From Patescibacteria group bacterium (GTDB lineage: Bacteria > Patescibacteriota > Microgenomatia > Daviesbacterales > UBA10151), in contig JBBTSA010000010.1 in assembly GCA_038064895.1 (NCBI GenBank), positions 182,616 through 246,615 of the forward strand: DNA of 64,000 nt. The letters are read 5' to 3'. Below the pieces are notes generated by a model. It was not told the DNA's origin. It saw nothing but the letters and a program-made list of their open reading frames with translations, and searched no databases. Shown here one piece after another: positions 1,583 to 33,294 of this stretch. The position numbers and the translations under genes are program-made. Numbering within the stretch: position 1 is the stretch's first letter; each line of letters starts with the position of its first letter.

Positions 1583-2828
1583 AGGTAGAGTATATTATCA
1601 GAGCCATAAGTAGTAAAGCAGCTACTCCGGTTGAGGCCAAAATTATAATGAATAAACTTGGATGGAAAAACCAAATAATTATAATCTGAATAATTGCTGC
1701 GATGGCAGGAAAATAGACAACATTTATCCTACCGATAGAAAGATGTAGATTAATATAAAGGCAGCAGATAGTAAATATAGTAATAAAAAATCCATACCAT
1801 AATAAAAGTGGTGAAGCTTCTAAATAATCAGAATTTAGCATTCTGATTACAAATTCAGGCATGAGCCAGTAAATTATTAAAACTAAAAAAGAAATTAGAG
1901 AAGTTAATAATAAGCTTAAGAAAAATACTTTTTTATATTCTTTTCCTTTTGATTGTTTTTGTGAGATAAGCGGGAACATTACAGCACCAATAGGCGCTGT
2001 TCCAAAGAAAATGATTTTTCCTAAAGAAGAAATTACGGCATAAATTCCCGCATCATGGGGAGCAAAAAAATGCTTAATTAAAATAATATCTGTAGAATAC
2101 AAAGATGTAATTGAAATGGATTGAATGAGAACTGGGAATGAATAGTGAAGCATCTTTTTAACATTTGGAACTCTTAGTGATTTTTTTAAATAATTTTGAA
2201 TAAATAATCTGGAAAGGAAAAATCCAATTGACGAAGCAATTACTAAACCGGCTACCGCTCCGGCTACAGAGAAACCAATGTAGACGAAGAATATGCCTAA
2301 TAATAATTTAAAACTGCTTTCAGTAAAAAGACTAAAGATCATTTGAGGAAATTTTAAAAGTCCTTGAAGAACTGATTTATAAAGAAGCGCTGCCAAAGAA
2401 AATAAAAATGATACAGCAATCAAAATAATTATTAGTTTATTATCTATCTTTAAAAATGAAGAAATAAATGGAGAAAAAAGGGTAATCATTGTAAATATAA
2501 TCAGAGATAAAATAAAAACCCTAGCATTAAACCAGCTTACTAGATTTACTACTTCACTATCATTTTTTGCTGAGGAAACAAATTTAATAATTACGAGACT
2601 CAGTGAGGCAGGGGCAATTCCTAAAAGTCCAGTAAGTGATAGTAATGCTGCTAATTCCCCATAGCTGGGTGGTGTAAGGAATCTAATCATTACCAGATGA
2701 TATAAATAATTTAGAAAATTAACCAGATTACTACCAGCTATCATAACTATGCTCCCCGTAAGTAACGGATGAGAAAGTAAATTTAAAAATTCAAATTTAA
2801 AATTTAAAATTGTCCTCATGCTACCCAA
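1542..2828 (-). CDS. MOP-superfamily polysaccharide flippase (Wzx/Polysacc_synt-like).
   Basis: 428 aa, ~12 predicted TM helices, Wzx-like hydrophobic architecture. Lies within the glycosylation operon. Confidence 0.6.
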   Translation of the reverse strand: MGSMRTILNFKFEFLNLLSHPLLTGSIVMIAGSNLVNFLNYLYHLVMIRFLTPPSYGELAALLSLTGLLGIAPASLSLVIIKFVSSAKNDSEVVNLVSWFNARVFILSLIIFTMITLFSPFISSFLKIDNKLIIILIAVSFLFSLAALLYKSVLQGLLKFPQMIFSLFTESSFKLLLGIFFVYIGFSVAGAVAGLVIASSIGFFLSRLFIQNYLKKSLRVPNVKKMLHYSFPVLIQSISITSLYSTDIILIKHFFAPHDAGIYAVISSLGKIIFFGTAPIGAVMFPLISQKQSKGKEYKKVFFLSLLLTSLISFLVLIIYWLMPEFVIRMLNSDYLEASPLLLWYGFFITIFTICCLYINLHLSIGRINVVYFPAIAAIIQIIIIWFFHPSLFIIILASTGVAALLLMALIIYSTYGDKTYLGNSSGI

Positions 2829-3976
2829 TACCCCCTTAAAAACAGTACCGATTCTATAAATAAAAGAATAATTGATACGGATAAAATAATAACCTTTAAT
2901 ATGTTTGGTTTACTATTTAACCATATGGCAGCAGCCAGAAAGCTTGGAAAAAAAACGATAATATATCTGGGGGTCGAGGAAAAACTACCTTGAATAGTTG
3001 GCAGCAAAAACCCTACCATAGCATATATAAGATAGGAGAGACGTATTTTTTTAAAGAACCCGTAAATAGGAAGCAAGAAAAAAATAATTCCTAAACTAAA
3101 TTCCAAAAGAATTGTTTGATAGATCGGATTTTGCATATCAACAGTAAGTAACATCTTGATATAACGGAAATAAACTTGAGGTAAAAGAGTAATACCCGCG
3201 GTATGCTGTTCTCCAACAATTGTCTGTAGATTATAAAATGCTAAAGGATCATCGAATGTAAAGTACTGATATAACATGTACATTCCAAGCCCCACAGGAA
3301 TAAAAAATAACCAAAAGATGATCTTTCGGTACATCTTTTGTTGCCAAATCTCAACTAAAAAAGCAGGGAAAAGTATTATCCCAAAAACCCTTGTAGCAGA
3401 AGATAAAGCACCCAAAAATGATGATTTTAGAAGCATACCCTTTCTAAAAGTATAAAATGACAAAACCGAAAAAAGGAGAAAAAGAGATTCATTATATAAT
3501 GCTCCAAAATAAAAAGAGGTGGGAAAGATTAGAAGCAGAATGATCGTAAGATATGCTAAATTTTGGGAATAATCTATTCTTATAAGTTCCCAAAGTATAA
3601 CTAATGCAAAGAAAAAAGCTATATTGGATGTTAAAAGACCGGCCAAGATGGAAAAAACATTCGCTGAAAATAGATCATTATAAAAAGGTTTTGCGAAAAA
3701 AGATATTAGAGTCGGGTATACCGGAAAGAAGGCCTGTTCTAAAAATTTATATCCGTGGATTGAAATGGATAGATAATGCTCTCCGTCAAAATTTGCCCAG
3801 GAGAAAAATAAAGGCTCAAGATGATAATTTTGAGACCCTCCTCCCAGGAATCTATCTTTATTCATAAGAGGAACATTAGAAACAGCAAAAACGCCTGCCA
3901 ATGTTAAGAATATTCTCCAGGCTATAAATAAAGTAAGAATTATAAAAAGTGGATGTTTTGATAACTTAGCAATCAT
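2816..3976 (-). CDS. Polytopic membrane protein, GT-C-like (PIG-V/DUF2029/GT87-type mannosyltransferase-like).
   Basis: 386 aa, highly hydrophobic with ~10 TM helices and aromatic-rich loops. Family assignment is tentative. Confidence 0.35.
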   Translation of the reverse strand: MIAKLSKHPLFIILTLFIAWRIFLTLAGVFAVSNVPLMNKDRFLGGGSQNYHLEPLFFSWANFDGEHYLSISIHGYKFLEQAFFPVYPTLISFFAKPFYNDLFSANVFSILAGLLTSNIAFFFALVILWELIRIDYSQNLAYLTIILLLIFPTSFYFGALYNESLFLLFSVLSFYTFRKGMLLKSSFLGALSSATRVFGIILFPAFLVEIWQQKMYRKIIFWLFFIPVGLGMYMLYQYFTFDDPLAFYNLQTIVGEQHTAGITLLPQVYFRYIKMLLTVDMQNPIYQTILLEFSLGIIFFLLPIYGFFKKIRLSYLIYAMVGFLLPTIQGSFSSTPRYIIVFFPSFLAAAIWLNSKPNILKVIILSVSIILLFIESVLFLRGYWVA

Positions 3977-4031
3977 TTTTTAAGTTTTCCAGCAAATTTC
4001 TGGTATAATAACCAATTCCTCTTGTTGATTT

Positions 4032-4778
4032 TCATTTTCTAAAATCTATTAAATATTTAATGTATGCGACGGGAAATCTTAGAGATGAAAATAATGCAAA
4101 CAAAAAACCGGGAAAGCCATCCATAAAACCCTTATGCCTAATGTATGCTTTTATAAACCAGAAGCCGGGTTTTAAAAAAAAATAATCAAAAAAGGAGGGA
4201 TTATTAATCTGTACCGATAGAAAATCTGTGTATCTATTAAATCTTTCCATATATATTGAGAATGTTTTATCTCTCATATGCAATAAATCACTCCTAAAAT
4301 ACTCTACCTTACCTTTTACTTCTGCTTGCTCATGAACATCTTTGGCTGGAAACCTTCCAAAGCCTCTTTTGTAAAGCCTTAAAGTATAATCAGGGTATTG
4401 CCCGCCCTTTGTCAAAAACCTTCCTAAAAAGAAATTCTTTCTCGGAATCCAGAAACCCTCTATATTGCTTTTTCTTAAGATAACTTCTTCTATCTCCCGG
4501 ACTAATGCCTTTGTAACCACTTCGTCCGCGTCAAGCTGTAAAATCCACTCCCCCGCTGCCATATCAATTGCCTTATTTTTATTTATATGAAAATTAGCAG
4601 GATTGGTGGTTCGTATAATTTTGGCCCCAAAACTTTCGGCAATCTTTAAAGTATTGTCTTTGGAACCTCCATCTACTACAACAATCTCCCATGCAATATC
4701 CCTTACAGAATCCAGGCAATTCTTTAGATTGGCCTCTTCGTTATAAACAGCTAATACAACAGATAGTCTTTTCTTCAT
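4032..4778 (-). CDS. GT2 glycosyltransferase.
   Basis: 'LSVVLAVYNEEANL...VVVDGGSKDNT...QLDADE' is the GT2 signature with a DxD motif. Confidence 0.75.
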   Translation of the reverse strand: MKKRLSVVLAVYNEEANLKNCLDSVRDIAWEIVVVDGGSKDNTLKIAESFGAKIIRTTNPANFHINKNKAIDMAAGEWILQLDADEVVTKALVREIEEVILRKSNIEGFWIPRKNFFLGRFLTKGGQYPDYTLRLYKRGFGRFPAKDVHEQAEVKGKVEYFRSDLLHMRDKTFSIYMERFNRYTDFLSVQINNPSFFDYFFLKPGFWFIKAYIRHKGFMDGFPGFLFALFSSLRFPVAYIKYLIDFRK

Positions 4779-4914
4779 ACAGAAAGTCTATTACTTACAA
4801 TCTATCGCTAATAAGATAAAATGCAATTGTGCCATTAGGATAGTAGATAATCTTTTTAATATCAAATGATAATTTGTGTTCCTTAATATATTCTACTATT
4901 TGTTTCATACCATA

Positions 4915-6111
4915 CTACCATTCGATAGCATATCTTTTTGAATATTCCCCAAAGTAATGATTCAAATAATTCTTTAATGACAAGGCTAAAATAACAACGG
5001 TTACTGCAACCAATATGAACTTCAAGATGGGCTTACTTAGCAAACTGACAATAAAATAAAGACCCAGTGCAGAAATAATATGCCAACTTCCTATCATAAA
5101 AGAAGCTCTTGCTGCATGGGGTGCTTCTGCCACCAGAGCTGAAGAAAGTGGTGCAATCAGTGCCCAACTCAAAAGAATCATACTCTCTTTAGATCTTTTA
5201 TACAAAAGGTAAACTACCCCTAAAATTAGAAATAGAGCATCTAATTTATAAAATTCTCCTGTTTGAGAAGAAAGCCTTGGATTTTTATCACTCTGTATGA
5301 ATAAATATTGTGGGGAAAAGTGCCAACTATATTGAGTAAGAATCAATTTAATACGGCCAAACAATTTATTCTCTCCTCTTTGCACTGTTTGATTTATTCT
5401 GGCGATACCTAAAAGCTGAGGGTGAGAAATAAGTATCAATCCAAAAATTATCACCACAATCGATGATGATACTACTACCTTCTTATTTTTAATAAAAGTT
5501 TTAATCCTGTTGAAATAGAGAGTTATTAAAACAAAAATCACCATTGGGACTACCACCTTGGATGGATGGTATGTTAGAAAACAAATTGCAAAACTGCTTA
5601 TAGATAAAGGTAGTAATTTTTGAGTTTTTTTAAATGAAACATAGAATAAAATTAACCCGGCCATAAAAAAGAATGAAGCAAAATTAGCTTCGTGGCTAAA
5701 ACGGGAAAAATGAATATTATATGGAGAAATTGCTAAAAAAAATGCCGCAATCAATCCTAAAAATTCACTTTTAAACATTATTCTAGCCAGAAAAAATATA
5801 AGTAACACATTCAAAACCCCAAAAACAGAAGAAGGAAATCTGGTACTAAATTCGGAAAGTCCGAGTAGTTTTATAGAAAGGGCGGTAAAATATACATGAA
5901 CCGGATGTTTATCGTCAGCAAAAGAGCGAAAATAGAAGGGGAAAGATTTGCCATATTCGTCTTTTCCGAAATTGGCAATAGCCCATCCGTTATACCCTAC
6001 TGCCGCCTCATCCCAGGAGATTGAAGGAGGATGGGAGTCCAACTGATACACTCTAAGAGTAAGTGACAGGATTAAAATAAGAAAAAGGAGAATTTTAGTT
6101 AACCTTTGCAT
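4915..6111 (-). CDS. GT39/PMT/ArnT-like polyprenyl-phosphate-sugar-dependent GT-C glycosyltransferase (short member, 398 aa).
   Basis: 'SWDEAAVGYNGWAI' Asp-Glu first-loop motif, '...FGKDEYGKSFPF', and the conserved C-terminal 'HFSPQYLFIQSDKNPR' module. Starts immediately after the stop of the next array member. Confidence 0.65.
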   Translation of the reverse strand: MQRLTKILLFLILILSLTLRVYQLDSHPPSISWDEAAVGYNGWAIANFGKDEYGKSFPFYFRSFADDKHPVHVYFTALSIKLLGLSEFSTRFPSSVFGVLNVLLIFFLARIMFKSEFLGLIAAFFLAISPYNIHFSRFSHEANFASFFFMAGLILFYVSFKKTQKLLPLSISSFAICFLTYHPSKVVVPMVIFVLITLYFNRIKTFIKNKKVVVSSSIVVIIFGLILISHPQLLGIARINQTVQRGENKLFGRIKLILTQYSWHFSPQYLFIQSDKNPRLSSQTGEFYKLDALFLILGVVYLLYKRSKESMILLSWALIAPLSSALVAEAPHAARASFMIGSWHIISALGLYFIVSLLSKPILKFILVAVTVVILALSLKNYLNHYFGEYSKRYAIEW

Positions 6112-7509
6112 TTAGTCTCCGAAATAAAACCTGCCAAAACTTTTGACCGTTGAGAATCCCCATTTATCCGGTGTATTTCTTATAACCTCTTTCCTGAATT
6201 TTTCCGGATCATATTTTAAATAAAAAAGGGCAAAAATATAGGGTTGGGCATACTGGTCCGAAACTAACACCTGGTCATAATTTCCAAACTTATTGTTGTA
6301 TTGCATAAAAAAATTTTTGTAAGCATATTGCCAGTGTTCTTTTGATTGGGCTGGATAGGTATTTATAAAATTCATAAAGTAATTTATATAAAAAGACAGC
6401 ATAACTAAAACAATCCCAAAATCAAAAAGATATTTTAGCTTTGGCCTTAACAAACTTAATCCTATGGCGGAAATCATGCTGATAAACGGCACCATAGATA
6501 ACGCCCGTAAAGCATGGGGTGATTCTTTGGTTAATGCAGCAGGTATTGGACTAATCAGCAGTAAAGCTATCGGCAAAAATCGATATTTTGATTTACTATT
6601 TACAAATGTTAGATATGATACACCGAGAAGAAAGAGAACTAATTCAGGAAGATAAAGCTGACCGAAACCCATCTGTTGATGTCGCAAATTTTTATCACCA
6701 TTCAGTAGAAAATCTGTACTAAAGTGAGATATATAATTTTTTATAAAAGTCTCTATATTGACAGTACCCACAGCCTGAAGTCTAAAAAACCCCACATCAT
6801 ATAAATATAGTCTGTAAATTGGCCAAATACTTATGGCAACTATAGCCAAAGATAAAATTACCCACCTAAGCTGTCTTTTTGCTAAATTTATCAGATTTTC
6901 TTTTTCTAAAAAAAATAGGATAAAAATTGTTAAAGGAGCAATTATCCTAAAGCTGTTGTAACTGTAGGCACTGAAAATAAAGCTTACCAGGGATAAGAGT
7001 ATTAAACTTCCATTTCTTGGATTAATTAGAAATAAATAAATTGCCAGCAAATAAAACATCAGACCGGCAGTTACCTCAAATCCTGTTCTTGAAAAAATAA
7101 AAAACCAGGGGGATATAGTTGCAAAAAAAGCACTCCATAGGCCAACCCATACTTGACCTGTTAACTTTTTAGCCAAAAGGTATGTTAAAATAACTACCCC
7201 CAAGGAAAACAAAACAGAAGGGATTCTAACTGAAAATTCATTTAGACCAAAAATGCTTACTGAAAGAGCCGTTGAATAAATATAGACCGGTAATTTAAAT
7301 TCACCAAATGCCCTGAAATGTATTGGCAAAAAATCTCCCCATTCATCCTTATCTGTTTGAGAAATAGAATATGCGTTGTAGCCTATGGACGCTTCATCCC
7401 AATAAACTGATGGTGGTATTTCTGAAATTTTATAAAGACGCGTAATAAGAAAAAAAACACAAATTAAACTTAATAAAAACCTTGTATTTAAAAACTTTGA
7501 TACAGACAT
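6112..7509 (-). CDS. GT39/PMT/ArnT-like GT-C glycosyltransferase (array member).
   Basis: 'YWDEASIGYNAYSISQTDKDEWGDFLPIHFRAFGEFKLP', multi-TM, C-terminal 'HFSTDFLLNGDKNLRHQQ' module. Confidence 0.7.
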   Translation of the reverse strand: MSVSKFLNTRFLLSLICVFFLITRLYKISEIPPSVYWDEASIGYNAYSISQTDKDEWGDFLPIHFRAFGEFKLPVYIYSTALSVSIFGLNEFSVRIPSVLFSLGVVILTYLLAKKLTGQVWVGLWSAFFATISPWFFIFSRTGFEVTAGLMFYLLAIYLFLINPRNGSLILLSLVSFIFSAYSYNSFRIIAPLTIFILFFLEKENLINLAKRQLRWVILSLAIVAISIWPIYRLYLYDVGFFRLQAVGTVNIETFIKNYISHFSTDFLLNGDKNLRHQQMGFGQLYLPELVLFLLGVSYLTFVNSKSKYRFLPIALLLISPIPAALTKESPHALRALSMVPFISMISAIGLSLLRPKLKYLFDFGIVLVMLSFYINYFMNFINTYPAQSKEHWQYAYKNFFMQYNNKFGNYDQVLVSDQYAQPYIFALFYLKYDPEKFRKEVIRNTPDKWGFSTVKSFGRFYFGD

Positions 7510-7524
7510 AATTTGATAACCTAA

Positions 7525-9207
7525 TCATAGCATGATGTAGAAAGCTTCACATTTAGGATGGCGCAAGCCCCTTTTAAAAACACTTTCACATTTTTCTTCA
7601 GGGTTAGTCGTATAAGCTATAAGTTTAATCTTTCCATCTAAACCCTTTATTTCAAAAAGAAACTTTAAATTATGCTCCAAAACCTGGTCATAAGAGATAG
7701 CAAGCTCATCTCCCACTAATATTTTGTCCTCATAAATTTCTCTATCCCAAATAATTGGCCTTATTTCAAGATTGTCAAGCTTTGTCTCCATATCCAAAGA
7801 AATATTGTTATAGTAGTTATTTTTAATCTCTTTGCTTGTTTGCAGTTGGTATTTTTTGGGATCTATTTTTCCATAAAAGGGTACCCATATATGAGAAGGT
7901 GCAATTCTACTGGAATCGATAACAATTTTTTTATCCGGATACTGTTTTAATTCAGATACTAATTTTTGATACTCGTAACCATAGTTTCCTCCTCTTTCAT
8001 ATTTTAAGAGAATAAAATATGAGTTATATAAAATAACAAGGGAAGTTATTGGAATTATCATGATGAGAATTATCTGAATCAATCTCAAGGGTATTCTCTC
8101 AAGTAGTTCGCTAGTGCCAAGAGAAATTATGAGAGTTAAAACCCAAAAAAGAGGTAATGCCCTAAGTGAATAAAATGGATCTTTTGTTAAGGCAGCAGGT
8201 ATAGGACTTACGATAAGTAGTAACAGAAGGATTTTAAAGATAGGATCTGATTGATTTTTCAATAAAAACTTAATACCAAGCCATAACGGCACAACCATCC
8301 ATGCATAAAAGATGCTTAAATTGGGCATTGATCTGGCCTCTTGCGGATCAGGATCAAAAAATAAGCTTCTGGGTGAGAAGTATTCAAGATAATGACTACT
8401 AAATTCCCTTAAAATATATAAGGCTCTTCCAAATATGATGTATTTAAAGTTACTACCATGCTCATTATAATCATTTTCATTTAAATAATTAACTTGTTCT
8501 ATCCTTCTTGTAAATGCTTCTGATTGAATAAATGTTAGCTGGGGCAGTTGAGAAATTATAAAAAGAACAATCCCAATTAAAAGATATTTTTTATATCTTA
8601 AAAATCTATTTTTAAACACCCAAATTAGGAGTGGAAAAAAGATTAGTCCTAAGTATCTTTCTGTATGATAAGTATATCCAGAAAGTCCCCCTACCAAAAA
8701 TACTAATATGATCAGTTTTGGGTTTGATAAAGATTTAATAAACAAAAAGACATTTAAAATAAAAAGTGTCAAAGATAAACTTATCTCATGACCTCCCCTT
8801 CCAAAATATACAGCCCATGGAGAAATAGAAATCAGAAATACTACTAAAGTCTGTCCAGAAAAAGTTATTTTTTTAATTTGAAATGCTATAAGCAGGGATA
8901 AAATAATAAGTAAAATACTTGAAAATACAGAGATAAGGCGAATCGAAAATACGGTTGGCCCAAAAAATGCAACTGGAATAACAGAAAAGTAAGTATACAT
9001 TGGCAGAAGATATGTCCCCAAAGATCTAAAAGCTAATGGTAAGGTCTGTCCGTAACGATCCTTACCTGTCTGCAAAATAGAATAAGCATTATAACCATGT
9101 GATGCTTCATCTGGATTTAAGCCGGGTGGAATATCATTTAGGTGATAGAATCGTAAAAATATACCTATTGATAAAACTAATAATAAAATAAGAATTTTAA
9201 AGCCCAT
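7525..9207 (-). CDS. GT39/PMT/ArnT-like GT-C glycosyltransferase (array member).
   Basis: 'NPDEASHGYNAYSILQTGKDRYGQTLPLAFRS', multi-TM, 'YFSPRSLFFDPDPQEAR' module, ~170-aa C-terminal soluble domain. Confidence 0.7.
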   Translation of the reverse strand: MGFKILILLLVLSIGIFLRFYHLNDIPPGLNPDEASHGYNAYSILQTGKDRYGQTLPLAFRSLGTYLLPMYTYFSVIPVAFFGPTVFSIRLISVFSSILLIILSLLIAFQIKKITFSGQTLVVFLISISPWAVYFGRGGHEISLSLTLFILNVFLFIKSLSNPKLIILVFLVGGLSGYTYHTERYLGLIFFPLLIWVFKNRFLRYKKYLLIGIVLFIISQLPQLTFIQSEAFTRRIEQVNYLNENDYNEHGSNFKYIIFGRALYILREFSSHYLEYFSPRSLFFDPDPQEARSMPNLSIFYAWMVVPLWLGIKFLLKNQSDPIFKILLLLLIVSPIPAALTKDPFYSLRALPLFWVLTLIISLGTSELLERIPLRLIQIILIMIIPITSLVILYNSYFILLKYERGGNYGYEYQKLVSELKQYPDKKIVIDSSRIAPSHIWVPFYGKIDPKKYQLQTSKEIKNNYYNNISLDMETKLDNLEIRPIIWDREIYEDKILVGDELAISYDQVLEHNLKFLFEIKGLDGKIKLIAYTTNPEEKCESVFKRGLRHPKCEAFYIML

Positions 9208-9874
9208 TTTTTTCAGTTCTAAAAATTTTTAAAATACCCAAGGTTATCAGTAAATTAATTAATGGAAATAGAAGAACTGGTCCCAAAGTAAATGTTTGTT
9301 TTATAAATCCCGTAACAAGAAGTGCAAATAATAAGTAGAGAACTATCAAATATGAAGAAGATTTAATAAAATATAAAAGTCCAATTAAAAAGAATATAAG
9401 AAAAATTGCAGGATACATTGAAAATTCTTCAACTTTTTCTCTTTCCCTAGGATGATTAGAAAAAAAATATAGATTTGGACTTAAACTATTAAAAATATTG
9501 CTTGCATAAACATTAAAATATGGATAAATATCCTTATAAAAGCGCAATACAAACTTATTTTTAAAGAGTTTACCAAGACTAATTGCAAAATACCCATGTC
9601 TTTCATTTAACTGTTTTTGTTGATCCGGCCTAAGTTCTCTTAAATTGTTATCAAAACCTGCTACTAAAATCTTTACACTTGTCGAAAATAGAAGAAGTAA
9701 AGTAATAAGAAAAATTTTTTTATTTAACCTAGTAGCCGTCAAACTCGCCATTGTTAAACTTAACAGAACTAAAGTTAAGCCAAGAAACAGATCTATCTTT
9801 ATTATTTTCCAAATCCAAAAATTTGTTATAGCAACTGCAAGACTAATAAGAGTTACGAGAGAAATCCGATGCAT
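9197..9874 (-). CDS. Membrane protein consisting only of the C-terminal module of the GT39-like family. Possible gene fragment or split gene.
   Basis: 'NSLSPNLYFFSNHPREREKVEEFSMYPAIFLIFFLIGLLYF' aligns with the conserved 'HFSPQ(Y/F)LF..GD.NPR...(Y/F)...LIL(G)' block of neighbouring paralogs. It has no N-terminal DE-loop region. Confidence 0.45.
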   Translation of the reverse strand: MHRISLVTLISLAVAITNFWIWKIIKIDLFLGLTLVLLSLTMASLTATRLNKKIFLITLLLLFSTSVKILVAGFDNNLRELRPDQQKQLNERHGYFAISLGKLFKNKFVLRFYKDIYPYFNVYASNIFNSLSPNLYFFSNHPREREKVEEFSMYPAIFLIFFLIGLLYFIKSSSYLIVLYLLFALLVTGFIKQTFTLGPVLLFPLINLLITLGILKIFRTEKNGL

Positions 9875-11529
9875 TATTGTTTAACTTCTAAAATATCAAA
9901 AGCATTTTCACCATTTAGAAAATTTACAGAAAGGATGCGGGGTATTTCTTTTGGAAAATCTTCACCTCTGCCAATAAATAATATTTTCTTTCCACTATTT
10001 TCTCTTACAATATCCTCAAACCTTGTCCCTTTATCTCCTAAATCAGGAAAGTAAAAATTGTCAAATTTAAGAACTCTTACCCAGTCGTATGTCTCAAATC
10101 TTATCAAGTTTGGATCATTTTGATATCTAACTGGATCATAGTTTAAATAAAATAATGTAAACATATGTGGTTCTCCATAATGTCTTGTAAAAACAATTAA
10201 ATCATACTCATCTTTGTGTTCTTTAATATATTGAACAACTTGTTTATATCCATATTGCCAATCTCTTGAGTAAGAGGAAGGATAAACAGAGTAATAATTA
10301 TATAGATAATTTTTTAAACTTACTATTATTACTATTGCTAAGATTAAGACTCCTATACATTGAATGTTTACGGAATATTTTTTAAACCATTTTACAAAAA
10401 TTAAAAATCCAAGTGCTGAAATTAACTGATAAAGGGGTGCAGCAATCAGAGTCCTCAATGCATGAGGAATACTATCACCTGTTGCAGATACAGGAATATA
10501 TGCTAAAAACAACCATGAGATTAAAAGGCCTTTAAATTTTTGCTTAAGAGAAAAGAGACTGATTAAACCAATTATTAAAAAGGGTGACTGAAATAAATAT
10601 AATTGCCCTATATTTTGGGCATGATGCTGCTTATGGGGAGCACCGGAAAAAAATAAAAATTGGGGCGTAAAGTGCGAAAGATAGTTTTTTGTAAAATAAA
10701 AAGATATATAAGTTACTTTATTGTGTATAAGACGAGGTATAGGTTTCGGCAGATTTGATTTTCCCCTATTCTCATTTATTCTCGGTATCAATCCCGGATC
10801 ATCTGTTATACTTACCAACTTATATCTTGCACTTCTCTCTCCAGATAGAATAAAAGGCGCCAAAGGTAACATTAGTACTGTGAACAAAACTGCCGAAAGA
10901 ACTACAACTTCTTTGAATTTAGCAAGATTTTTTCTATAGATTAAAGATGTAGCTATAAGAAATAGAGGTGTAAAAATTCTTGCCGAATTATATGTAAATA
11001 CAGATAAAGCAAAAGGTATCATACCAAAAACTAACCACTTTTGTTTTTTAAATCCGAGTACAAGAAGATAAATACCTAGAGTTACCCAAAATGTTGCGAA
11101 TGATGACTCAAATGAAGCACGTGTTAAATGAATATGCCAAGGAGAAATAGCAAGTAAAAATGAAGACGCTAACCCCGCCAAACTACTCTGGAAAAGTTCT
11201 TTTCCCAAAAAAAATACAACTATCACGGTTAAGATTCCGTAAACTATAGGTGTAACTCTTACCCCGAGCTCATTTAAACCAAATATTGTTACGCCTGGAA
11301 TGCTTGCATAAACTTGTACTGGGAGTTTAAATTCCCCATATGCTTTAAAATGTATTGGAAACAATTCCCCCCATTCATCTTTCCCGGTCCTTAAGATCGA
11401 ATATGCATTATATGCAATTGATACTTCATCCCAATTTAAAGAGGGGGGGACTTCTGTCACTTTATAAAATCTTAAAAAAAATGCTGCTACTGTTATTAAA
11501 AGAAGTACTGAAAAAACTTTACGGTTCAT
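9874..11529 (-). CDS. GT39/PMT/ArnT-like GT-C glycosyltransferase (array member).
   Basis: 'NWDEVSIAYNAYSILRTGKDEWGELFPIHFKAYGEFKLP', 'HFTPQFLFFSGAPHKQHH'. Confidence 0.7.
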   Translation of the reverse strand: MNRKVFSVLLLITVAAFFLRFYKVTEVPPSLNWDEVSIAYNAYSILRTGKDEWGELFPIHFKAYGEFKLPVQVYASIPGVTIFGLNELGVRVTPIVYGILTVIVVFFLGKELFQSSLAGLASSFLLAISPWHIHLTRASFESSFATFWVTLGIYLLVLGFKKQKWLVFGMIPFALSVFTYNSARIFTPLFLIATSLIYRKNLAKFKEVVVLSAVLFTVLMLPLAPFILSGERSARYKLVSITDDPGLIPRINENRGKSNLPKPIPRLIHNKVTYISFYFTKNYLSHFTPQFLFFSGAPHKQHHAQNIGQLYLFQSPFLIIGLISLFSLKQKFKGLLISWLFLAYIPVSATGDSIPHALRTLIAAPLYQLISALGFLIFVKWFKKYSVNIQCIGVLILAIVIIVSLKNYLYNYYSVYPSSYSRDWQYGYKQVVQYIKEHKDEYDLIVFTRHYGEPHMFTLFYLNYDPVRYQNDPNLIRFETYDWVRVLKFDNFYFPDLGDKGTRFEDIVRENSGKKILFIGRGEDFPKEIPRILSVNFLNGENAFDILEVKQ

Positions 11530-11640
11530 TTTAAGTTATGCAAAATTATATTAACTCTCCAGTATGTAAAGATCAATGAACTTAGCAATCAAGAAAAATA
11601 TTACTAAGCAATGAAATTTTAAAAATATCATATTTTAAAA

Positions 11641-13263
11641 TTAAAGCTTCACCCCGTAAAATGCAGGTCTTTTATTATAAAAATAGAAAACTCGTATTAT
11701 TTTATCCTTTTCAATATCCTGAATTGGTAAACTCCATGGACTCCCAATAAGTAAAGTATTTTTTAAGTTGTAATCCTTTCCCCATTCTATTTTTCTAATA
11801 GAAAATTTTTCGAAACTTAATTCTCTGTCTTTATCTCCAATCTTATATTCCTTTTGAAATTTTGACGGCGGGTAATTTCCAAAGTAAGCCAAATAATAAT
11901 GGGCTCCAACTCCAATTCTAGGAGCATCTTCTCCAAATAAGGGATCTAATACAATTTGATCAAAATCATTACTCTTAGACCATGCAAACTCTGATACCTG
12001 CTTAAATGGATATTGCAGATATTGAGATTTCTCAAAAGGATAATTTACAAAATAAACATGAAGAAAATAAATTACATTACAAGTTAGCAGCACTAGAAAT
12101 ATTATTGATGCTAGTTTAAAACTCCTACTATCCTTTAGTTTCTGCCAAAACCAATAACTACCAACACCAGTTACTATATTTAGAAATGTAAAAGCTATAA
12201 CTATCCTATGTGGGCTATAGGGTTCGAATGTTAATCCGCTTGGTAATGTTCCTAAAGCTATCAAGGAAGCAATTAACTTACCCTCTTTTCTTAAAAAAGG
12301 TCTTTGAATAAAAAATAAGACTCCTAAACTTAAGAAAGGTAATTGTACAAACAAAAGCGGACCGATATTTAGTGGGCCTTGATTGGTTAAATTTAAACCA
12401 TTTACAAATAAATAAGTTGGATCAAACTGATTAAGATAACGATTAAAAATAAAATCTCCAATTACTTTGAAGTATAGAGGGCCATTTACAAATTCCAACT
12501 GTTTTCCCAAGTTTATATCTTGAGTTATGAAGACTGTCTGCGATCTATATCTACTCCCTGGATTAATCAAGAAGATTAAAACAAGAGGAACAATAAGAAA
12601 AATCCATAAAAGTAATGGCGGTAAAAGCTCCTTAGGCTTAAAAGAGAATTGTTTTCTAAAAATTAAAATAAATACCGCTACCATAAGTGGGATAATAATT
12701 ACATGAGAGAAGTAAGTATACATACCCAAAGCCGAAAAAAGAGCAACCAAATATAACCATCTCTTTCCTTTTCCCAATGAATTAAAAAGACAGACAAAAG
12801 CAATAAGTGTAAAGAAAATCCCTATACCGTTTTCAAAACTTTTCCGGGAAAAAAATATTTCTGCGGGAGAAATAGCTGTAAAAAAACTTGCCCATAAAGC
12901 TAGTCTAGAGTTCTTTGTTAAGCTTTTAGTAAACCAAAAAACAGCTGGAATTATTAATATACCAAATACTACTCCGACTACCCTAATTGTCCATTCATGA
13001 TTACCAGCTAATAAGTATACTAGTGCAGTTGCATAAGTATAAAAAGGGGGTTTGAAATCACCTATGGAGGGGAAGATTGTAGGTAAAAAATTACCATAAA
13101 TATCTCGACCCGTTTGAGCTATGGATATAGCATCATAAAGTTGTGTAATTTCATCATGACCAAAATGTACGGGATACTTATTAAGCTCCCATACCCGTAA
13201 AAATATACCCAAAATCAGTATTGCTAGAAAAATCCAAAATTTGGTGATTTTCATTTTATACAT
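11641..13263 (-). CDS. GT39/PMT/ArnT-like GT-C glycosyltransferase (array member).
   Basis: 'HDEITQLYDAISIAQTGRDIYGNFLPTIFPSIGDFKPP', multi-TM. Confidence 0.65.
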   Translation of the reverse strand: MYKMKITKFWIFLAILILGIFLRVWELNKYPVHFGHDEITQLYDAISIAQTGRDIYGNFLPTIFPSIGDFKPPFYTYATALVYLLAGNHEWTIRVVGVVFGILIIPAVFWFTKSLTKNSRLALWASFFTAISPAEIFFSRKSFENGIGIFFTLIAFVCLFNSLGKGKRWLYLVALFSALGMYTYFSHVIIIPLMVAVFILIFRKQFSFKPKELLPPLLLWIFLIVPLVLIFLINPGSRYRSQTVFITQDINLGKQLEFVNGPLYFKVIGDFIFNRYLNQFDPTYLFVNGLNLTNQGPLNIGPLLFVQLPFLSLGVLFFIQRPFLRKEGKLIASLIALGTLPSGLTFEPYSPHRIVIAFTFLNIVTGVGSYWFWQKLKDSRSFKLASIIFLVLLTCNVIYFLHVYFVNYPFEKSQYLQYPFKQVSEFAWSKSNDFDQIVLDPLFGEDAPRIGVGAHYYLAYFGNYPPSKFQKEYKIGDKDRELSFEKFSIRKIEWGKDYNLKNTLLIGSPWSLPIQDIEKDKIIRVFYFYNKRPAFYGVKL

Positions 13264-14810
13264 ACTCTACCTTTAATTAAGTAAGTAGCATCTTCTCCCT
13301 TACTATCCAAATAGGTCTTTTCTATATCGACTATATCTGCCGACTTAAGCCTCTGAAGGTCACGTTTACTGGAAAATAATTGCGTATTTTCTTCAGTCCC
13401 ACAAGTTTTAAAACTATCACTTACACCCACAACTGTAATCTTCCCCAATTTAGTTTGACGAAACTTATACGGATAAGGTATATCTAAAAAAGCTTCTGAA
13501 GGATTAAACGGCGTATACCATCCAATAAAGGGTGTGATATCTTCAACAATATCATCAGATATAAGTACTCGGTTTGTATTTGATAATTTAAAAACATCTT
13601 CTACTACCGTCTTAATCCATCCCGGTCTTATATAAGTAGTAGATTTAATTTGTGGGGATAAAGGGGATAAAAAGGAAAGATTAACAATAAGCTCCAGAGC
13701 CATCAAAATAAAAATTAAGGTCGAGAGTGATTTTTTCATCTGAAGAAATCCAAAAGCTATTACAAATGCAATAAAAGGTATCGCTAGAATCACAATTTGG
13801 GGACTAAATTGTGGATAAATTAATGCAGAAGGTAACGTTATTATCAATGAATATAAAAGAAATTTACTTCTTTTCTCTCTTATTAAAAATAACATGCCCA
13901 GAAGCGCAGGAAGTATAGCTATCTTAGGAAAAGCACCCATACCAACAAAACCTAAATTCCCATTCTTATCAAATTGGCCAAACAATATACTTGGCGCTAA
14001 ATTAGATAAAAAGTGGAAAAACCCTGTAACAAAAAAATAAGATTTATTGATAAGAATCTCCCCAAGAAGCGGTGACCAATTACTTTCAATTCCCTGTCCT
14101 CTTAACTTATTGATTCCGTTTATTATTGTTACATCTGAAAATAGTGAAAAATTATTTTCAGATAGACTTCTTTTAGATTGTGGGACTTGTAGAAAAAAAG
14201 CTAACGCTAATAAAACGAAAACTAAGGATGCTGTCAGTAATTTACCTTTTTGGCCAGTAAAGAATATGAATGGCACAAGTAAAAACCAGGTGAACTTAGA
14301 CAAAAAGATTGCCAAAATCATTACTGGGATTGTAAATAGCCTTTTGTTGTTTATTAAAAGATAAAAAAGCAATGCAAAAATAAATGTTAAAACAATACTC
14401 TCGTTTGGGGTTTTTGATAAGAAAATCAAGGGTGGGGATAATGCTACAACTAAACCGCTAGCTAGCCAAAAAAATGGTTTAGCACTCAAAGATTTTGCTA
14501 TATAATAAATTAGTAAAACAAGAGCTGTTCCCATTAATATAAAGGGTAACCTTACTCCCAAATCCGACTTACCAAATAAGAATACCCCCAATCCTGTTAG
14601 GTATGAGACTAAAGGCAGTCGGTAATCTTCTAAGGAGTTAAATAGTAAAGGGAGTAACCTACCTAATTCATCTTTACCAGATATTGCTAAGGAATATCCT
14701 CTAAAAGCTACTCTTGCTTCCTCTTGTGTAAAGGGCGGAAAGCCTAATGGAATAATTCTTAAGGCGAAAGCCAAAAGAACTATTAATAATAAATTTTTAT
14801 TAGTTCCCAT
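13251..14810 (-). CDS. GT39/PMT/ArnT-like GT-C glycosyltransferase (divergent array member).
   Basis: 'TQEEARVAFRGYSLAISGKDELGRLLPLLFNS', same topology. Confidence 0.55.
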   Translation of the reverse strand: MGTNKNLLLIVLLAFALRIIPLGFPPFTQEEARVAFRGYSLAISGKDELGRLLPLLFNSLEDYRLPLVSYLTGLGVFLFGKSDLGVRLPFILMGTALVLLIYYIAKSLSAKPFFWLASGLVVALSPPLIFLSKTPNESIVLTFIFALLFYLLINNKRLFTIPVMILAIFLSKFTWFLLVPFIFFTGQKGKLLTASLVFVLLALAFFLQVPQSKRSLSENNFSLFSDVTIINGINKLRGQGIESNWSPLLGEILINKSYFFVTGFFHFLSNLAPSILFGQFDKNGNLGFVGMGAFPKIAILPALLGMLFLIREKRSKFLLYSLIITLPSALIYPQFSPQIVILAIPFIAFVIAFGFLQMKKSLSTLIFILMALELIVNLSFLSPLSPQIKSTTYIRPGWIKTVVEDVFKLSNTNRVLISDDIVEDITPFIGWYTPFNPSEAFLDIPYPYKFRQTKLGKITVVGVSDSFKTCGTEENTQLFSSKRDLQRLKSADIVDIEKTYLDSKGEDATYLIKGRVCIK

Positions 14811-16272
14811 TTTTCAATAAATAATAATCCGATTGACCAACTCTTACAAGATTTAGATCATCTTTTTTGGTCGAAATACCCCCAAAATCAACAAGGATTA
14901 CGCTATTTTTCGGTATATCCTCATTTTGTGACCAACGATTTAATCCTTCAGCAAAATAAACCTCCTTAAAAAAATTAGCAGCAATTGAGTTTTCGGATAA
15001 ATTACTCTGGATAAAAGGCTTTAAATTTTCTTCCTTTGCCTTAAGGTACAGCTCTTTAAAACCAAGGTGTATGGGTTTTGAAAATTCGGAAGTAACTAGT
15101 TTTGGATACTCGTACCAATAAAATCTTACAAAGTCCTGATAATTGATTATGATCAGTATTAAGATACTTAGAATTGTCAATATTTTCTTAAGTGAAAACC
15201 TTAACGAGAGTATACTAACCATCCCGTATGTTGAAATAACTACATAAAACGGTATTAAAACTAGCAATCTACTACCCCTATGTATTGGTGTACCTATACC
15301 AAAAAGTAGGGGTGTTAGAAAAAAACATAACAAAGTAAAGACGAAAAAGTGATGCTTTTTTTGAATAGTTCTAACTATACCCAAGATAAATAACGGCAAG
15401 GATGATAGCAGGAAAACTCCGTGTTTACCTGTTGAGTGGTATGGCGTTGTATCACCGGTTATATATAAAAATGCGGGATCAAAAGAAGAAATAAAGGGAA
15501 GTAAAATATCCTGATAGCTCTCTATATTAAAAGCTCTATACTGACCTAGGATAGAACCAGGATATTCACTCTTAAGAAGAAACAGCAGTAAAAATGAGGG
15601 GAGGAGTCCTGCTAAGAAAAATAAGGATTTTTTGATTGATTGCGACGGATTGGTTCTGTCAATATAAATAAGGTAGGCAATGGTTAATAAAGCAAGAACA
15701 GGTACAATAAGTCTCATGCCAAGATAAGAAAATAAACTAAAACCCAAGAAAACTGACGATGAGAAAAGTAGTATCTTACTATTATTTCTTATAAATTTTG
15801 CAAGAAATAGCAACCAAAGGCTTACAAGAGGAACGGGCGCAATATTTTCAAGTGCAAGATGCGTTTGAATCATAAGAATTGGGATTGTTGTAAAAATTAG
15901 TAAGCTAAATAATGCAGGAATAAATCCAAGAACCATGTTTATTAGGATAAAAATAATAAGGCAGGAGGCAAGACCGAATATAACGCTTACTGCTCTTAAA
16001 CTAAAATATGATGGCCCGAATAATTTAAAAGTAATTATTTCAGAATAAAAAGTGACCGGCTGTTTCCAATCTTTTGAATTTGGATCTGAAGTAAAGATTG
16101 GCATAAATTTTCCCAAGGAATCTCTTCCTGTTTTGGAAACTAGGGCAGCATTATAACCAATAGATGCCTCATCACCGTTTATACCTGGAGGAACATCTAA
16201 AATCCTAAAGGTGAAAAATATCCAGCCAAATAAAAAGAAGGCAGTAAGTGAAAAAATTTTAGCATTAACCAT
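14800..16272 (-). CDS. GT39/PMT/ArnT-like GT-C glycosyltransferase (array member).
   Basis: 'NGDEASIGYNAALVSKTGRDSLGKFMPIFTS', multi-TM. Confidence 0.65.
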   Translation of the reverse strand: MVNAKIFSLTAFFLFGWIFFTFRILDVPPGINGDEASIGYNAALVSKTGRDSLGKFMPIFTSDPNSKDWKQPVTFYSEIITFKLFGPSYFSLRAVSVIFGLASCLIIFILINMVLGFIPALFSLLIFTTIPILMIQTHLALENIAPVPLVSLWLLFLAKFIRNNSKILLFSSSVFLGFSLFSYLGMRLIVPVLALLTIAYLIYIDRTNPSQSIKKSLFFLAGLLPSFLLLFLLKSEYPGSILGQYRAFNIESYQDILLPFISSFDPAFLYITGDTTPYHSTGKHGVFLLSSLPLFILGIVRTIQKKHHFFVFTLLCFFLTPLLFGIGTPIHRGSRLLVLIPFYVVISTYGMVSILSLRFSLKKILTILSILILIIINYQDFVRFYWYEYPKLVTSEFSKPIHLGFKELYLKAKEENLKPFIQSNLSENSIAANFFKEVYFAEGLNRWSQNEDIPKNSVILVDFGGISTKKDDLNLVRVGQSDYYLLKNGN

Positions 16273-16280
16273 TATTTCCT

Positions 16281-17387
16281 CTACTTGAGTCGCTTATATA
16301 TGATATAAATTGCGGCACCGGCAAAAATAGACTGCAACAAACTTCTTGCAAAATTATAATCCACAGAAAATTTAAGCAAAGTCCATATATCCGGAGTTAG
16401 TTTTAAGAATGGGAAGAGGGGTGCGAACATTTTAGTAGTGAGTGAGGCATCAAAAAAGAAAAGTGATAGAATCCAGCTTATAAAAATTATTAATATCGGT
16501 AAAACATTTTTAAGTCTGTCAAATACCAAATCCAAAATCAAAAAAGGCGTTACCCAAATCAACCATTGAGGATGAAAATGGGTGAAAATAAAAAATAAAA
16601 GGAGCGGTGCTAAATACAACTTCCACAAAGATACTTTATCAACCCTTTGCCTTAAGATCAAAAAATAAAAAAGTACTATAAAAGTGGGGAAAAGTAGAAT
16701 AGATTCTCCTCCTGAAACAGGAATAGAGGCATATAAGCTTTTTGAACTTTGATTTGCAAATAAGGCATTTGACCTAAAATTACTTGAGGAAATATAGGGT
16801 AAGACTGAAGCGATATATGGTAGAAGTGTATAAACTACAAGTTTGGCTTTTGTCCAGAGCCCCTTTCCTAGTAGAATCAGTGGGATAATAAGAAACACGG
16901 GATACAGCTTAAAGGCAATCCCAACACCCAATACTAATGCTGCCCAAGTTAGCTTATTTTTTAAAGCCAAGTATATTGAAAGAACAGAAAAAAAAGTGGG
17001 AATAATATCAAATTGTCCCATCATATAGGTTGCATATAAACTGATTGGATTAAACATCCAAAGAGAGAAAGTAAGAATTTTATTTTGTGAATTAACCAAT
17101 TTTGTAAGTATTAAGCCTAGGGTTAAATCAAAAATTAAGTAAGATAGTTTCATAAGATATAAACTATTACCGAAAAGTAAATTAAGCAGCCCAAAAAACC
17201 AATAGATTAGCGGAGGATAATTTAAAACCAAGGCATCAGTACTGAATTCATAAAGATTTAAAATATGACCGTCCGAAACAAATTTCCCCCCCAAACTTAA
17301 AGCCCCAAGATCAGGATGAAGCGTTGATAAAGATAAAAATAATCTTAAACCTATACCAACTATTAATATAACCCAAAACCTTTTCAT
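16281..17387 (-). CDS. Polytopic membrane protein, GT-C-like (DUF2029/GT87-like), tentative.
   Basis: 368 aa, ~10 TM helices, 'NYPPLIYWFFG' and 'FNPISLYATYMMGQFD' loop motifs. Confidence 0.35.
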   Translation of the reverse strand: MKRFWVILIVGIGLRLFLSLSTLHPDLGALSLGGKFVSDGHILNLYEFSTDALVLNYPPLIYWFFGLLNLLFGNSLYLMKLSYLIFDLTLGLILTKLVNSQNKILTFSLWMFNPISLYATYMMGQFDIIPTFFSVLSIYLALKNKLTWAALVLGVGIAFKLYPVFLIIPLILLGKGLWTKAKLVVYTLLPYIASVLPYISSSNFRSNALFANQSSKSLYASIPVSGGESILLFPTFIVLFYFLILRQRVDKVSLWKLYLAPLLLFFIFTHFHPQWLIWVTPFLILDLVFDRLKNVLPILIIFISWILSLFFFDASLTTKMFAPLFPFLKLTPDIWTLLKFSVDYNFARSLLQSIFAGAAIYIIYKRLK

Positions 17388-18454
17388 AAGAGGTTGTGAA
17401 GAATTTCCTGAGTAAATTTTTCCTCATTAAAAATCCTTGATCTTGCCCGTGCGCGCCTGGACATTTCCTGCCACTTTTCTTTTTTTTCGCTTAGCATTAA
17501 AGTATATTTTTTAAGCTGTTCAACCGTTTCCCACAAGAAACCCGATCTAGTGTGTTCAACAATTTCTATTTGCCCGCCTTTCCCCAAAACCACAGGTACA
17601 CATCCTCCCGCCATCGCCTCCGCTGTTGAAATACCAAAATGTTCCATTTTAGTCGGATCGCCTTCTCCATACCCTGAAGCATGCCAATAAATTTTAGACT
17701 CACCATAAAATCTTATCAGATCATCATACTCCAAATTTGGGTGAAAAAATATCGGTAAATTGTTTGCAAGTTTTCTAAGTTGCTCAACGTAAGGTTTATC
17801 GCCCTCTGATGCTGAACCAACCAGATGCAAACTCCATCCGGTTAATAGTCTGTCTGCAAACATTTTTTTGAATGTCTCTATTAAAAGAGCGTGCTTCTTA
17901 TCTTTCAAATAACCGAAAAAGCGTCCCACAGACAAAATATAGTTTTTCTTGTTTAAAGGTTTAATTTTGTCAACATCAACCGGGGGATAAATTACTTGAG
18001 AATAAAGCGGCCAAAATTTTTCAGAATTTTTTTTTGTAAACTCAGAATTGTAAATAATTAAATCCCATTGCTTTAGTTTCAACTTTCCCCATAAAGCATT
18101 TGCCTGACCCGCCAGGGGAGTCTGAATATGCATTATATTTCTTTTAGCTGAGGGGATAAAAATACTACCATCTGTTAGATAGAAAAGTATGTCATATTTT
18201 TTTAAAAAAGAAAATCTTTGTAGAAAACTTGATCCTTTCCCTATTGGGCCATTTATAAAATTCACCTTAACTATATTTAAATTAAATCTCTTTGAAAGTT
18301 CTCTTTTTAGGTAGTCTCCTCCTAAATCTGCAAGATGTTTATCCAATAAGACATCTACCCTTCCCAGAGAACAGAGAACCTCTGCAATTGTCATCATATA
18401 TCTTTCTCCCCCGCCAAATGTATCAAGGTATGGAGAATAAATTGCTATTTTCAC
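17384..18454 (-). CDS. GT4 glycosyltransferase (Glycos_transf_1).
   Basis: C-terminal 'GYGEGDPTKMEHFGISTAEAMAGGCVPVVLGKGGQIEIV' matches the E-x7-E retaining GT-B motif region. Confidence 0.7.
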   Translation of the reverse strand: MKIAIYSPYLDTFGGGERYMMTIAEVLCSLGRVDVLLDKHLADLGGDYLKRELSKRFNLNIVKVNFINGPIGKGSSFLQRFSFLKKYDILFYLTDGSIFIPSAKRNIMHIQTPLAGQANALWGKLKLKQWDLIIYNSEFTKKNSEKFWPLYSQVIYPPVDVDKIKPLNKKNYILSVGRFFGYLKDKKHALLIETFKKMFADRLLTGWSLHLVGSASEGDKPYVEQLRKLANNLPIFFHPNLEYDDLIRFYGESKIYWHASGYGEGDPTKMEHFGISTAEAMAGGCVPVVLGKGGQIEIVEHTRSGFLWETVEQLKKYTLMLSEKKEKWQEMSRRARARSRIFNEEKFTQEILHNLL

Positions 18455-19254
18455 AACTTAAATCCGTTTTCTATTAACCGCTGATCTATCTCTCTATAAA
18501 TCTCCTCACGTGGCTTTTCTTGCTGAAGCTCCCATAACCTAACATAACTAATTAACATGCTAAATGATTGTAATAAAGAATCCATAACACCAATTGTTCC
18601 GTTAAAAAATCCACCTCTTTTAATCCCCTGGTTAAAAATTTCTCCAAATAAGATTCTTAGAAACCTCCATCCTGACATTTTTGGATGTCCTGCCTCAAAT
18701 CTTAATTTCGCATCAATTTTGCTCCACTGAAGACTTTTTAAAACTATCTGATCTATATCACGGTGGGTCAAATGTAACAGCAGATTCTTTGCATATCCGA
18801 GTTTACCTTTAAACTTTGGCGATTCATGCACCTTACCCTTCCATCCCTCAAAATCCGATCTTTTAAAAAGCCTTATTACCCAATCTTTTTTATAGGGACC
18901 ATAACTTACTTCCCTACCAAAAATAATATTTTTTCTTGAAATTGCAAAAGCCGAATAATCTGTAAAGGTTACCAGAGATTCCAACTCACTTCGCAGCGAA
19001 GATAGTACACGCTCGTCCGCATCCAGATAGAATACCCATTCTCCCCGAGTTTTTTCAAATGCTTTATTTCTTAAACTGTCAAAATCCAAATCTTTAAATT
19101 CAAAAATTTTGCTGGTATATTCTCTTGCAATCTGTTTTGTTTTATCAGATGAACCATTATCAGCAATAATAATTTCATCTGCCCATTTAACTGATTCTAA
19201 ACAAGCTTTGATTCTTTCTTCTTCATTTTTTGCAATCACAATTGCTGATAACAT
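18451..19254 (-). CDS. GT2-like glycosyltransferase.
   Basis: 'LSAIVIAKNEEERI...IIADNGSSDKTKQIA...YLDADE'. Confidence 0.65.
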   Translation of the reverse strand: MLSAIVIAKNEEERIKACLESVKWADEIIIADNGSSDKTKQIAREYTSKIFEFKDLDFDSLRNKAFEKTRGEWVFYLDADERVLSSLRSELESLVTFTDYSAFAISRKNIIFGREVSYGPYKKDWVIRLFKRSDFEGWKGKVHESPKFKGKLGYAKNLLLHLTHRDIDQIVLKSLQWSKIDAKLRFEAGHPKMSGWRFLRILFGEIFNQGIKRGGFFNGTIGVMDSLLQSFSMLISYVRLWELQQEKPREEIYREIDQRLIENGFKL

Positions 19255-19259
19255 ATTTG

Positions 19260-33292: not shown

Positions 33293-33294
33293 GT

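Follow-up and report, generated by a model that had tools for sequence, protein, structure and literature searches.

A GT-C glycosyltransferase array in a Microgenomates bacterium and a small gene coupled to one of its members

What does it mean when a row of related membrane glycosyltransferase genes holds, in its midst, a gene that matches only part of them? The question arises in a groundwater bacterium of the candidate phyla radiation (CPR; Microgenomates, Daviesbacteria-like), in a 64,000-nucleotide stretch of contig JBBTSA010000010.1 that is called the window here. Positions 4915-16272 of the window carry seven full-length paralogs of the GT-C type of membrane glycosyltransferase (g1 to g7) and a 225-amino-acid open reading frame (ORF) that we call f, i.e., eight genes, with all long ORFs on the minus strand and at the coordinates given in an earlier note on this DNA. 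That note had counted eight paralogs plus a fragment; the tandem, same-strand paralogs are there, but they number seven plus f, and an eighth paralog (g8) lies outside the interval. Overall, we consider it probable that this is an ancient GT-C array within a conserved envelope glycosylation island, in which f would act as a non-catalytic partner of g3 and g1 is decaying. The enzymes are of a known kind, already annotated as GT39-like. What is new here is the conserved module made of a GT-C-derived small gene and a GT-C gene, together with the scale of the island.

The small ORF f is homologous to an internal segment of the paralogs. Against a hidden Markov model (HMM) of the seven paralogs it scored 20.5 bits (E 1.2e-5), the best of 1,000 composition-preserving shuffles reaching 5.0 bits, and its alignment to the family block, which the earlier note had put forward, therefore stands under a formal HMM. 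Alignment of the f family with the paralogs (hhalign) gave a probability of 94% and an E value of 1.2e-7, and a profile-profile comparison of the f and g3 families (probability 83%) placed residues 96-223 of f on residues 247-374 of g3. The AlphaFold2 model of f (predicted local distance difference test [pLDDT], 87.8) shows three transmembrane (TM) helices followed by a helical loop; then come a short helix at SPNLYFF, ~20 residues of loop, and three further TM helices. This order parallels residues 160-372 of the predicted g3 model. By homology, f is the counterpart of the fourth outside loop of a GT-C enzyme together with the three TM helices that follow it. In the class A enzymes of solved structure, this loop spans the donor groove and touches the donor phosphate (PMC13503287). 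The catalytic first loop (there is no DE motif) and the C-terminal domain are both absent from f, which does not qualify as a GT-C enzyme.

The earlier note had taken f for the C-terminal block of the family, cut from a paralog. The homology is to an internal block, and f belongs to a conserved stand-alone family under clear constraint and is not a remnant. Its 43 close homologs are 153-252 amino acids long (most of them 210-235), and a profile search of 1.84 billion representative proteins yielded 538 f-family clusters at 50% identity, nearly all of 200-260 amino acids. Across the family 13 columns are invariant and are concentrated in NLYFFxNHPRER, including the HPRER stretch. The constant length, the 538 clusters, the invariant columns, and the confident model rule out a pseudogene fragment. 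That f is a missing piece of g3 was also ruled out, as g3 retains its own highly conserved block. No Pfam family was found in a scan of 32 members, and searches returned no PDB sequence relative, no Foldseek match, and no paper on f or on these arrays.

At the level of gene order, f is coupled specifically to the g3 subtype. The survey of this linkage covered 45 loci found through the f profile, from Daviesbacteria, Woesebacteria, Blackburnbacteria, Collierbacteria, and other Patescibacteria, and f is a separate ORF in all of them. In essentially all loci open to evaluation, f is directly followed by a g3-type GT-C gene, with an overlap or a gap of at most 4 nt; the lone apparent exception (L039) was missed by the ORF caller. 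Viewed from the other side, an f-like ORF ends at the start of 44 of the 48 g3-type genes in these loci, and two of the four exceptions are search artifacts (L009, at a locus edge, and L033, with a 95-nt overlap). Three further loci, picked by g3 homology alone, have an f-family gene directly upstream (172-189 bits). In the window, f overlaps the stop of g4 by 1 nt (TAATG) and the start of g3 by 11 nt. The gene upstream of f differs by locus, being g4, g5, g7, a GT87-like gene, a GT4-sized ORF, or nothing identifiable, and a partnership of f with its upstream gene was ruled out because that neighbor varies. One Daviesbacteria genome (STD1_94, JAQUSJ010000001.1; loci L010 and L014) carries the f+g3 pair at three sites, of which two are neighbors, each time with f and g3 together. 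A 671-amino-acid protein (P0174) considered as an f-g3 fusion was rejected; it is a g3 with a C-terminal extension. Many of the metagenome-assembled genome records that hold typical Microgenomates f-g3 loci (L015, L017, L022, and others) are titled "uncultured Gammaproteobacteria" or "Pseudomonadales" (binchicken co-assemblies), and these titles look taxonomically wrong.

As the apparent descendant of the middle part of a GT-C, one that would be translationally coupled to g3 everywhere examined, f is most likely a non-catalytic membrane partner of g3, and it possibly binds a lipid-phosphate substrate. We infer this partnership, physical or functional, from the gene pairing. A more specific version, which we put forward tentatively, is that f represents a new kind of accessory subunit for bacterial GT-C enzymes. 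It would derive from the donor-binding loop and the helices after it, have lost catalysis, and form an obligate hetero-complex with g3 in which it supplies or gates the lipid-phosphate, giving a pseudo-heterodimeric GT-C specific to Microgenomates. A GT-C that depends on its own partner in the membrane has a precedent in Gpi14/PIG-M with Pbn1/PIG-X (PMC12653191). Accessory subunits of the oligosaccharyltransferase (OST) are named alongside Pbn1/PIG-X as small non-catalytic GT-C partners. Those partners are eukaryotic and unrelated to GT-C, whereas f is bacterial, GT-C-derived, and encoded in an overlapping gene pair.

The main rival to this partnership gives f an independent role in the pathway, for example in binding, recycling, or flipping polyprenyl phosphate or in anchoring a GT2 enzyme in the membrane; f would then be co-transcribed with g3 as a pathway mate with which it forms no complex. 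Such a role would suit the HPRER stretch, which is far more conserved than the corresponding loop of the enzymes, the frequent position of f after GT2-GT2-GT4 genes, and the copy of the homologous block that g3 retains. It would also suit a 486-amino-acid protein from the representative search (P0286), in which an N-terminal GT2 domain (7-230) is fused to a complete f-family domain (267-482). This fusion fits an f whose N terminus lies inside and whose conserved loop lies outside the membrane, and it may link f functionally to a cytoplasmic GT2 or be a gene-calling artifact. However, strict adjacency and start/stop overlap with g3, with no fixed upstream gene, across Daviesbacteria, Woesebacteria, Collierbacteria, and others are typical of stoichiometric partners, and within one genome f and g3 occur together at each of several places. 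We therefore regard independent action of f as rather unlikely.

Several points nevertheless weigh against f as the partner of g3. The evidence for the partnership is gene linkage, drawn from 45 loci that were themselves selected through f, and the converse test comprised the three independently chosen loci. Two g3-type genes (L017 at 9204 and L049 at 4181) lack an adjacent f. As g3 keeps its own copy of the f-like block, f complements no missing part, and a phosphate-binding role for the loop arginine is uncertain because the paralogs do not all conserve this residue. The GT2-f fusion is represented by one protein. Finally, promoter and terminator scans found no more sites than in shuffled sequence and were uninformative, so the operon is deduced from gene spacing.

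What kind of enzyme, then, surrounds f? The earlier note had called the paralogs GT39/PMT-like, and PMT_2 (PF13231) is indeed above the gathering threshold in six of the seven (g1, g2, and g4-g7; 31-54 bits, cut-off 26.1); g3 has no Pfam match, yet about half of its homologs carry PF13231. PMT (PF02366) passes its threshold only in g2, g4, and g5, and the Pfam scan found neither PMT_4TMC nor MIR domains in any paralog. Scores against the equivalog models fall far short of the cut-offs: the best paralog score was 17.5 bits against a cut-off of 800 for the Pmt equivalog model (NF058602), and the score was 20.5 bits against a cut-off of 567 for the ArnT equivalog model (NF009784). Orthologs are named "glycosyltransferase family 39 protein" or "phospholipid carrier-dependent glycosyltransferase" at NCBI, and "GT39" is, for these paralogs, a database label.

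The motifs reported on the first outside loop were confirmed. The strings WDEASIGYNAYSI, NPDEASHGYNAYSIL, and NWDEVSIAYNAYSIL are present in g2, g3, and g4, respectively, the acidic pair of this loop is DE in g1-g5, g7, and g8 and EE in g6, and the GKDExG..P segment occurs in all seven paralogs. The block FSPQ.LF..GD.NPR, described as conserved throughout, is complete in g1 and g2 only, the others keeping (F/L)xPxxLF and a downstream Gly.

An AlphaFold2 model was computed for one paralog, g3, with 46 homologs as input (pLDDT, 91.2; predicted template modeling score, 0.90). It has ~7 TM helices, a helical outside loop, ~4 more TM helices, and an alpha/beta C-terminal domain. The best Foldseek match in the PDB is ArnT (5ezm/5f15; E 1e-7, TM-score 0.53-0.55), followed by AglB, PglB, STT3, ALG12, and Pmt4, all of these including ArnT with a probability of 1.00, and each of the top 25 PDB matches is either a GT-C enzyme or, like WaaL, a GT-C-like membrane protein. 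In the predicted model D33/E34 open helix 32-47, the first helix of outside loop 1, matching the position of the catalytic base of GT-C class A enzymes at the start of that helix (PMC13503287). ArnT is also the best PDB sequence match to the paralog-family profile. Because the g3 fold matches, the acidic pair is present, and the equivalog scores lie below their cut-offs, we assign the array genes to GT-C class A, near GT83 and GT39 and not demonstrably members of either.

Like the paralogs, ArnT (GT83; lipid A 4-amino-4-deoxy-L-arabinose transferase) is built as a GT-C class A enzyme with a C-terminal domain in the periplasm, and its donor is an undecaprenyl-phosphate-sugar. It differs in being a single gene, not arrayed, with only 11-12% identity, and the CPR bacteria of this group are not known to make lipid A. 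The protein O-mannosyltransferases of GT39 (eukaryotic PMT1-7 and actinobacterial Pmt) share the Pfam PMT/PMT_2 N-terminal region and the DE motif of loop 1, and they likewise come in families of paralogs and assemble into heterodimers, e.g., Pmt1-Pmt2 (6P25, among the Foldseek matches of the g3 model), but the fold match of Pmt to this model spans only ~270 residues. The fold of the enzymes and the neighboring GT2, GtrA-like, and Wzx-like genes suggest that the sugar donor is linked to polyprenyl phosphate.

How old is the array? Protein identity among g1-g7 is 24-33% (pairwise BLASTP, E 7e-6 to 1e-75), and at the DNA level the paralogs share only a handful of weak matches of short length, which at best reach 72% over 204 nt. 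The near-identical repeats expected of an assembly duplication are thus missing. Three independent contigs, from other samples and other assemblers, match window positions 5118-10664 at 99.9-100%, and the gene order is repeated in other genomes. An assembly or binning artifact, whether by collapsed or duplicated repeats or by chimerism, had nothing found in its favor and has a negligible probability; duplication by the assembler is excluded because DNA similarity is scant and independent contigs agree.

Orthologs were compared at two loci each from Daviesbacteria (L007 and L009) and Woesebacteria (L004 and L005), where they are 39-73% identical to the window genes, versus 24-33% between the window paralogs (Table 1). 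Each window paralog is closer to its orthologs elsewhere than to its own-array neighbors, and in a neighbor-joining tree the clusters correspond to subtype, not genome. The order at L007 is YfhO (reversed strand), GT2, GT2, GT4, GT87-like, g7, g6, g5, g4, g2, g1, GT2, GT4, PIG-V-like, Wzx, GT2, i.e., that of the window minus f and g3 and plus one extra GT4. Synteny with the window was also seen at L009 and L004, and the Woesebacteria ortholog of g8 heads the array of its genome. Because orthologs of each paralog exist in other genomes, and often lie there in matching order, the duplications are ancient and do not stem from a recent burst. This long-standing, conserved arrangement occasionally gains, loses, or moves modules; signs of such turnover are the f+g3 module's absence from the orthologous L007 array and its presence at three places in one Daviesbacteria genome.

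Table 1. Coordinates of the array genes and their flanking features in the window, with ortholog identities at the four comparison loci (aa, amino acids)
Feature	Position	Strand	Description	Ortholog identity
GT2, downstream	776-1582	minus		
Wzx-like flippase, downstream	1542-2828	minus		
PIG-V-like GT-C, downstream	2816-3976	minus		
GT2, downstream	4032-4778	minus	Block 776-4778 also in L007 and L009	
g1 C-terminal domain relic	4795-4914	minus	YGMKQIVEYIKEHK...IKKIIYYPNGTIAFYLISDRL; same frame past the TAG; tblastn with L007 and L009 orthologs, direct reading	
g1	4915-6111	minus	GT-C paralog, 398 aa; TM core intact, WDE motif, without C-terminal periplasmic domain; PMT_2 53.8 bits	46-60% (orthologs 530-543 aa)
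g2	6112-7509	minus	GT-C paralog, 465 aa; short C-terminal domain; PMT_2 38.9 bits, PMT 35.5 bits	62%
g3	7525-9207	minus	Divergent GT-C, 560 aa; no Pfam match; subtype paired with f	42-45%
f	9197-9874	minus	225 aa; six-TM protein, uncharacterized family	
g4	9874-11529	minus	GT-C paralog, 551 aa; best conserved of the set (70-75% identity, Daviesbacteria orthologs)	71-73%
g5	11641-13263	minus	GT-C paralog, 540 aa; PMT_2 49.5 bits	46-54%
g6	13251-14810	minus	GT-C paralog, 519 aa; acidic motif EE, not DE; PMT_2 31 bits	39-44%
g7	14800-16272	minus	GT-C paralog, 490 aa; PMT_2 34.2 bits	44-50%
Upstream co-directional genes	16281-20150	minus	PIG-M/GT87-like GT-C, GT4, two GT2 (in order); block also in L007	
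g8	23028-24641	minus	Eighth close paralog, 537 aa, outside the interval; PMT_2 38.6 bits	46%

The paralogs diverge most in their C-terminal domain, and the earlier note had assigned a distinct one to each. When isolated, the domains of g2, g3, g4, g5, and g8 proved pairwise homologous (E 3e-13 to 7e-3); no homology was detectable for those of g6 and g7, which are too divergent to judge alone, and g1 lacks the domain. At least five paralogs therefore carry domains of one divergent, homologous type and not separate modules. The g1 frame ends at an in-frame TAG (4915-4917) where its orthologs have Gln, and beyond it lie 39 in-frame codons in which a recognizable domain start and end flank an internal deletion of ~82 amino acids (Table 1). 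The TAG position falls outside the stretch covered by the independent contigs. The stop codon and the loss within the periplasmic domain mark g1 as decaying, and clear signs of decay in the array are confined to this gene.

These data bear on the explanation first offered for the locus, i.e., a rapid birth-and-death array of acceptor-specific transferases, with different C-terminal recognition modules and with f cut from a paralog. The genes are tandem paralogs arisen by duplication, as that explanation supposes, and the divergence of the C-terminal domain, its loss from g1, and the L007 array without the f+g3 module speak in its favor. The duplications are nonetheless old by all indications: orthologs group by subtype, every paralog has conserved orthologs in syntenic order, and no window pair exceeds 33% identity. 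The C-terminal domains are homologous in at least five paralogs, and the f family is constrained, with its 538 clusters, fixed length, and invariant residues. This view is largely refuted, and we consider it improbable.

The conserved GT-C array with its f+g3 module is embedded in ~45 kb of nearly uninterrupted glycosylation genes (776-45357), with at least 18 GT-C-like proteins (PMT_2, PIG-V-like, PIG-M/GT87-like, YfhO, and PTPS_related), ~7 GT2, one GT4, and two Wzx-like flippases. In a search of the window, the g1-g7 HMM gave g8 a score of 292 bits and also detected more distant members at 38256-39734 and 40856-43000. The latter (minus strand) encodes a 714-amino-acid GT2-PMT_2 fusion, in which a cytoplasmic GT2 is joined to a GT-C within a single chain. 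At 44173-45357 (minus strand) a GT2 is fused to a GtrA/DPMS TM domain and is a likely polyprenyl-phosphate sugar synthase of the island.

Two other sets of related genes were observed in the island, both on the minus strand. A second tandem array (31586-38249) consists of four PTPS_related (PF10131) multi-TM paralogs of 554-568 amino acids that are 30-40% identical, one of which also weakly matches YfhO and PMT_2. Two adjacent large genes (24638-26650 and 26647-30129) have no Pfam match; they encode a 670-amino-acid multi-TM protein and a neighbor of 1,160 amino acids, to residues 498-1158 of which the smaller protein is 32% identical, and the larger has an extra soluble N-terminal region of ~490 amino acids.

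How might such an island work? We propose that it would serve cell-envelope glycosylation, with 4915-16272 as its core. Cytoplasmic GT2 enzymes would load sugars onto polyprenyl phosphate, and the lipid-linked sugars would then be flipped by GtrA-like and Wzx-like proteins. Each GT-C, predicted to comprise seven conserved TM helices with a D/E-E motif on loop 1, about four additional TM helices, and a C-terminal domain in the periplasm, would pass a sugar, outside the membrane, to a surface polymer or protein. The same logic of GT2 polyprenyl-phosphate sugar synthase, flippase, and GT-C transferase is found in GtrA/GtrB/GtrC and CsbB/GtcA/YfhO, and the island encodes both a GT2+GtrA fusion and a YfhO homolog; those systems have one GT-C each, whereas many GT-C genes stand together here.

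The paralogs themselves would be closer to an assembly line such as Emb/Aft or ALG3/9/12 than to a set under rapid turnover. They most likely perform different, non-redundant steps or linkages, because each is a separate orthologous lineage kept across genera. Mycobacterial embCAB/Aft, ALG3/9/12 of the endoplasmic reticulum, and PIG-M/V/B are likewise diverged sets of GT-C paralogs, with one defined glycan step per member and polyprenyl-phosphate-sugar donors, and embCAB is a tandem array. The variable module fixes acceptor specificity (PMC13503287). The known sets differ in belonging to other CAZy families and in size, while the present one has seven to eight members in a row, among at least 18 GT-C-like genes in ~45 kb.

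The CPR bacteria are uncultured, next to nothing is known of the chemistry of their surfaces, and the island takes up a very large share of a small genome. At least 18 GT-C-like transferases in ~45 kb, conserved across genera, imply an elaborate and specific surface glycan or glycoprotein, which could play a part when the cells attach to hosts. For the GT-C family, the f-g3 pair offers a concrete hypothesis in which a bacterial GT-C would use a partner derived from its own fold.

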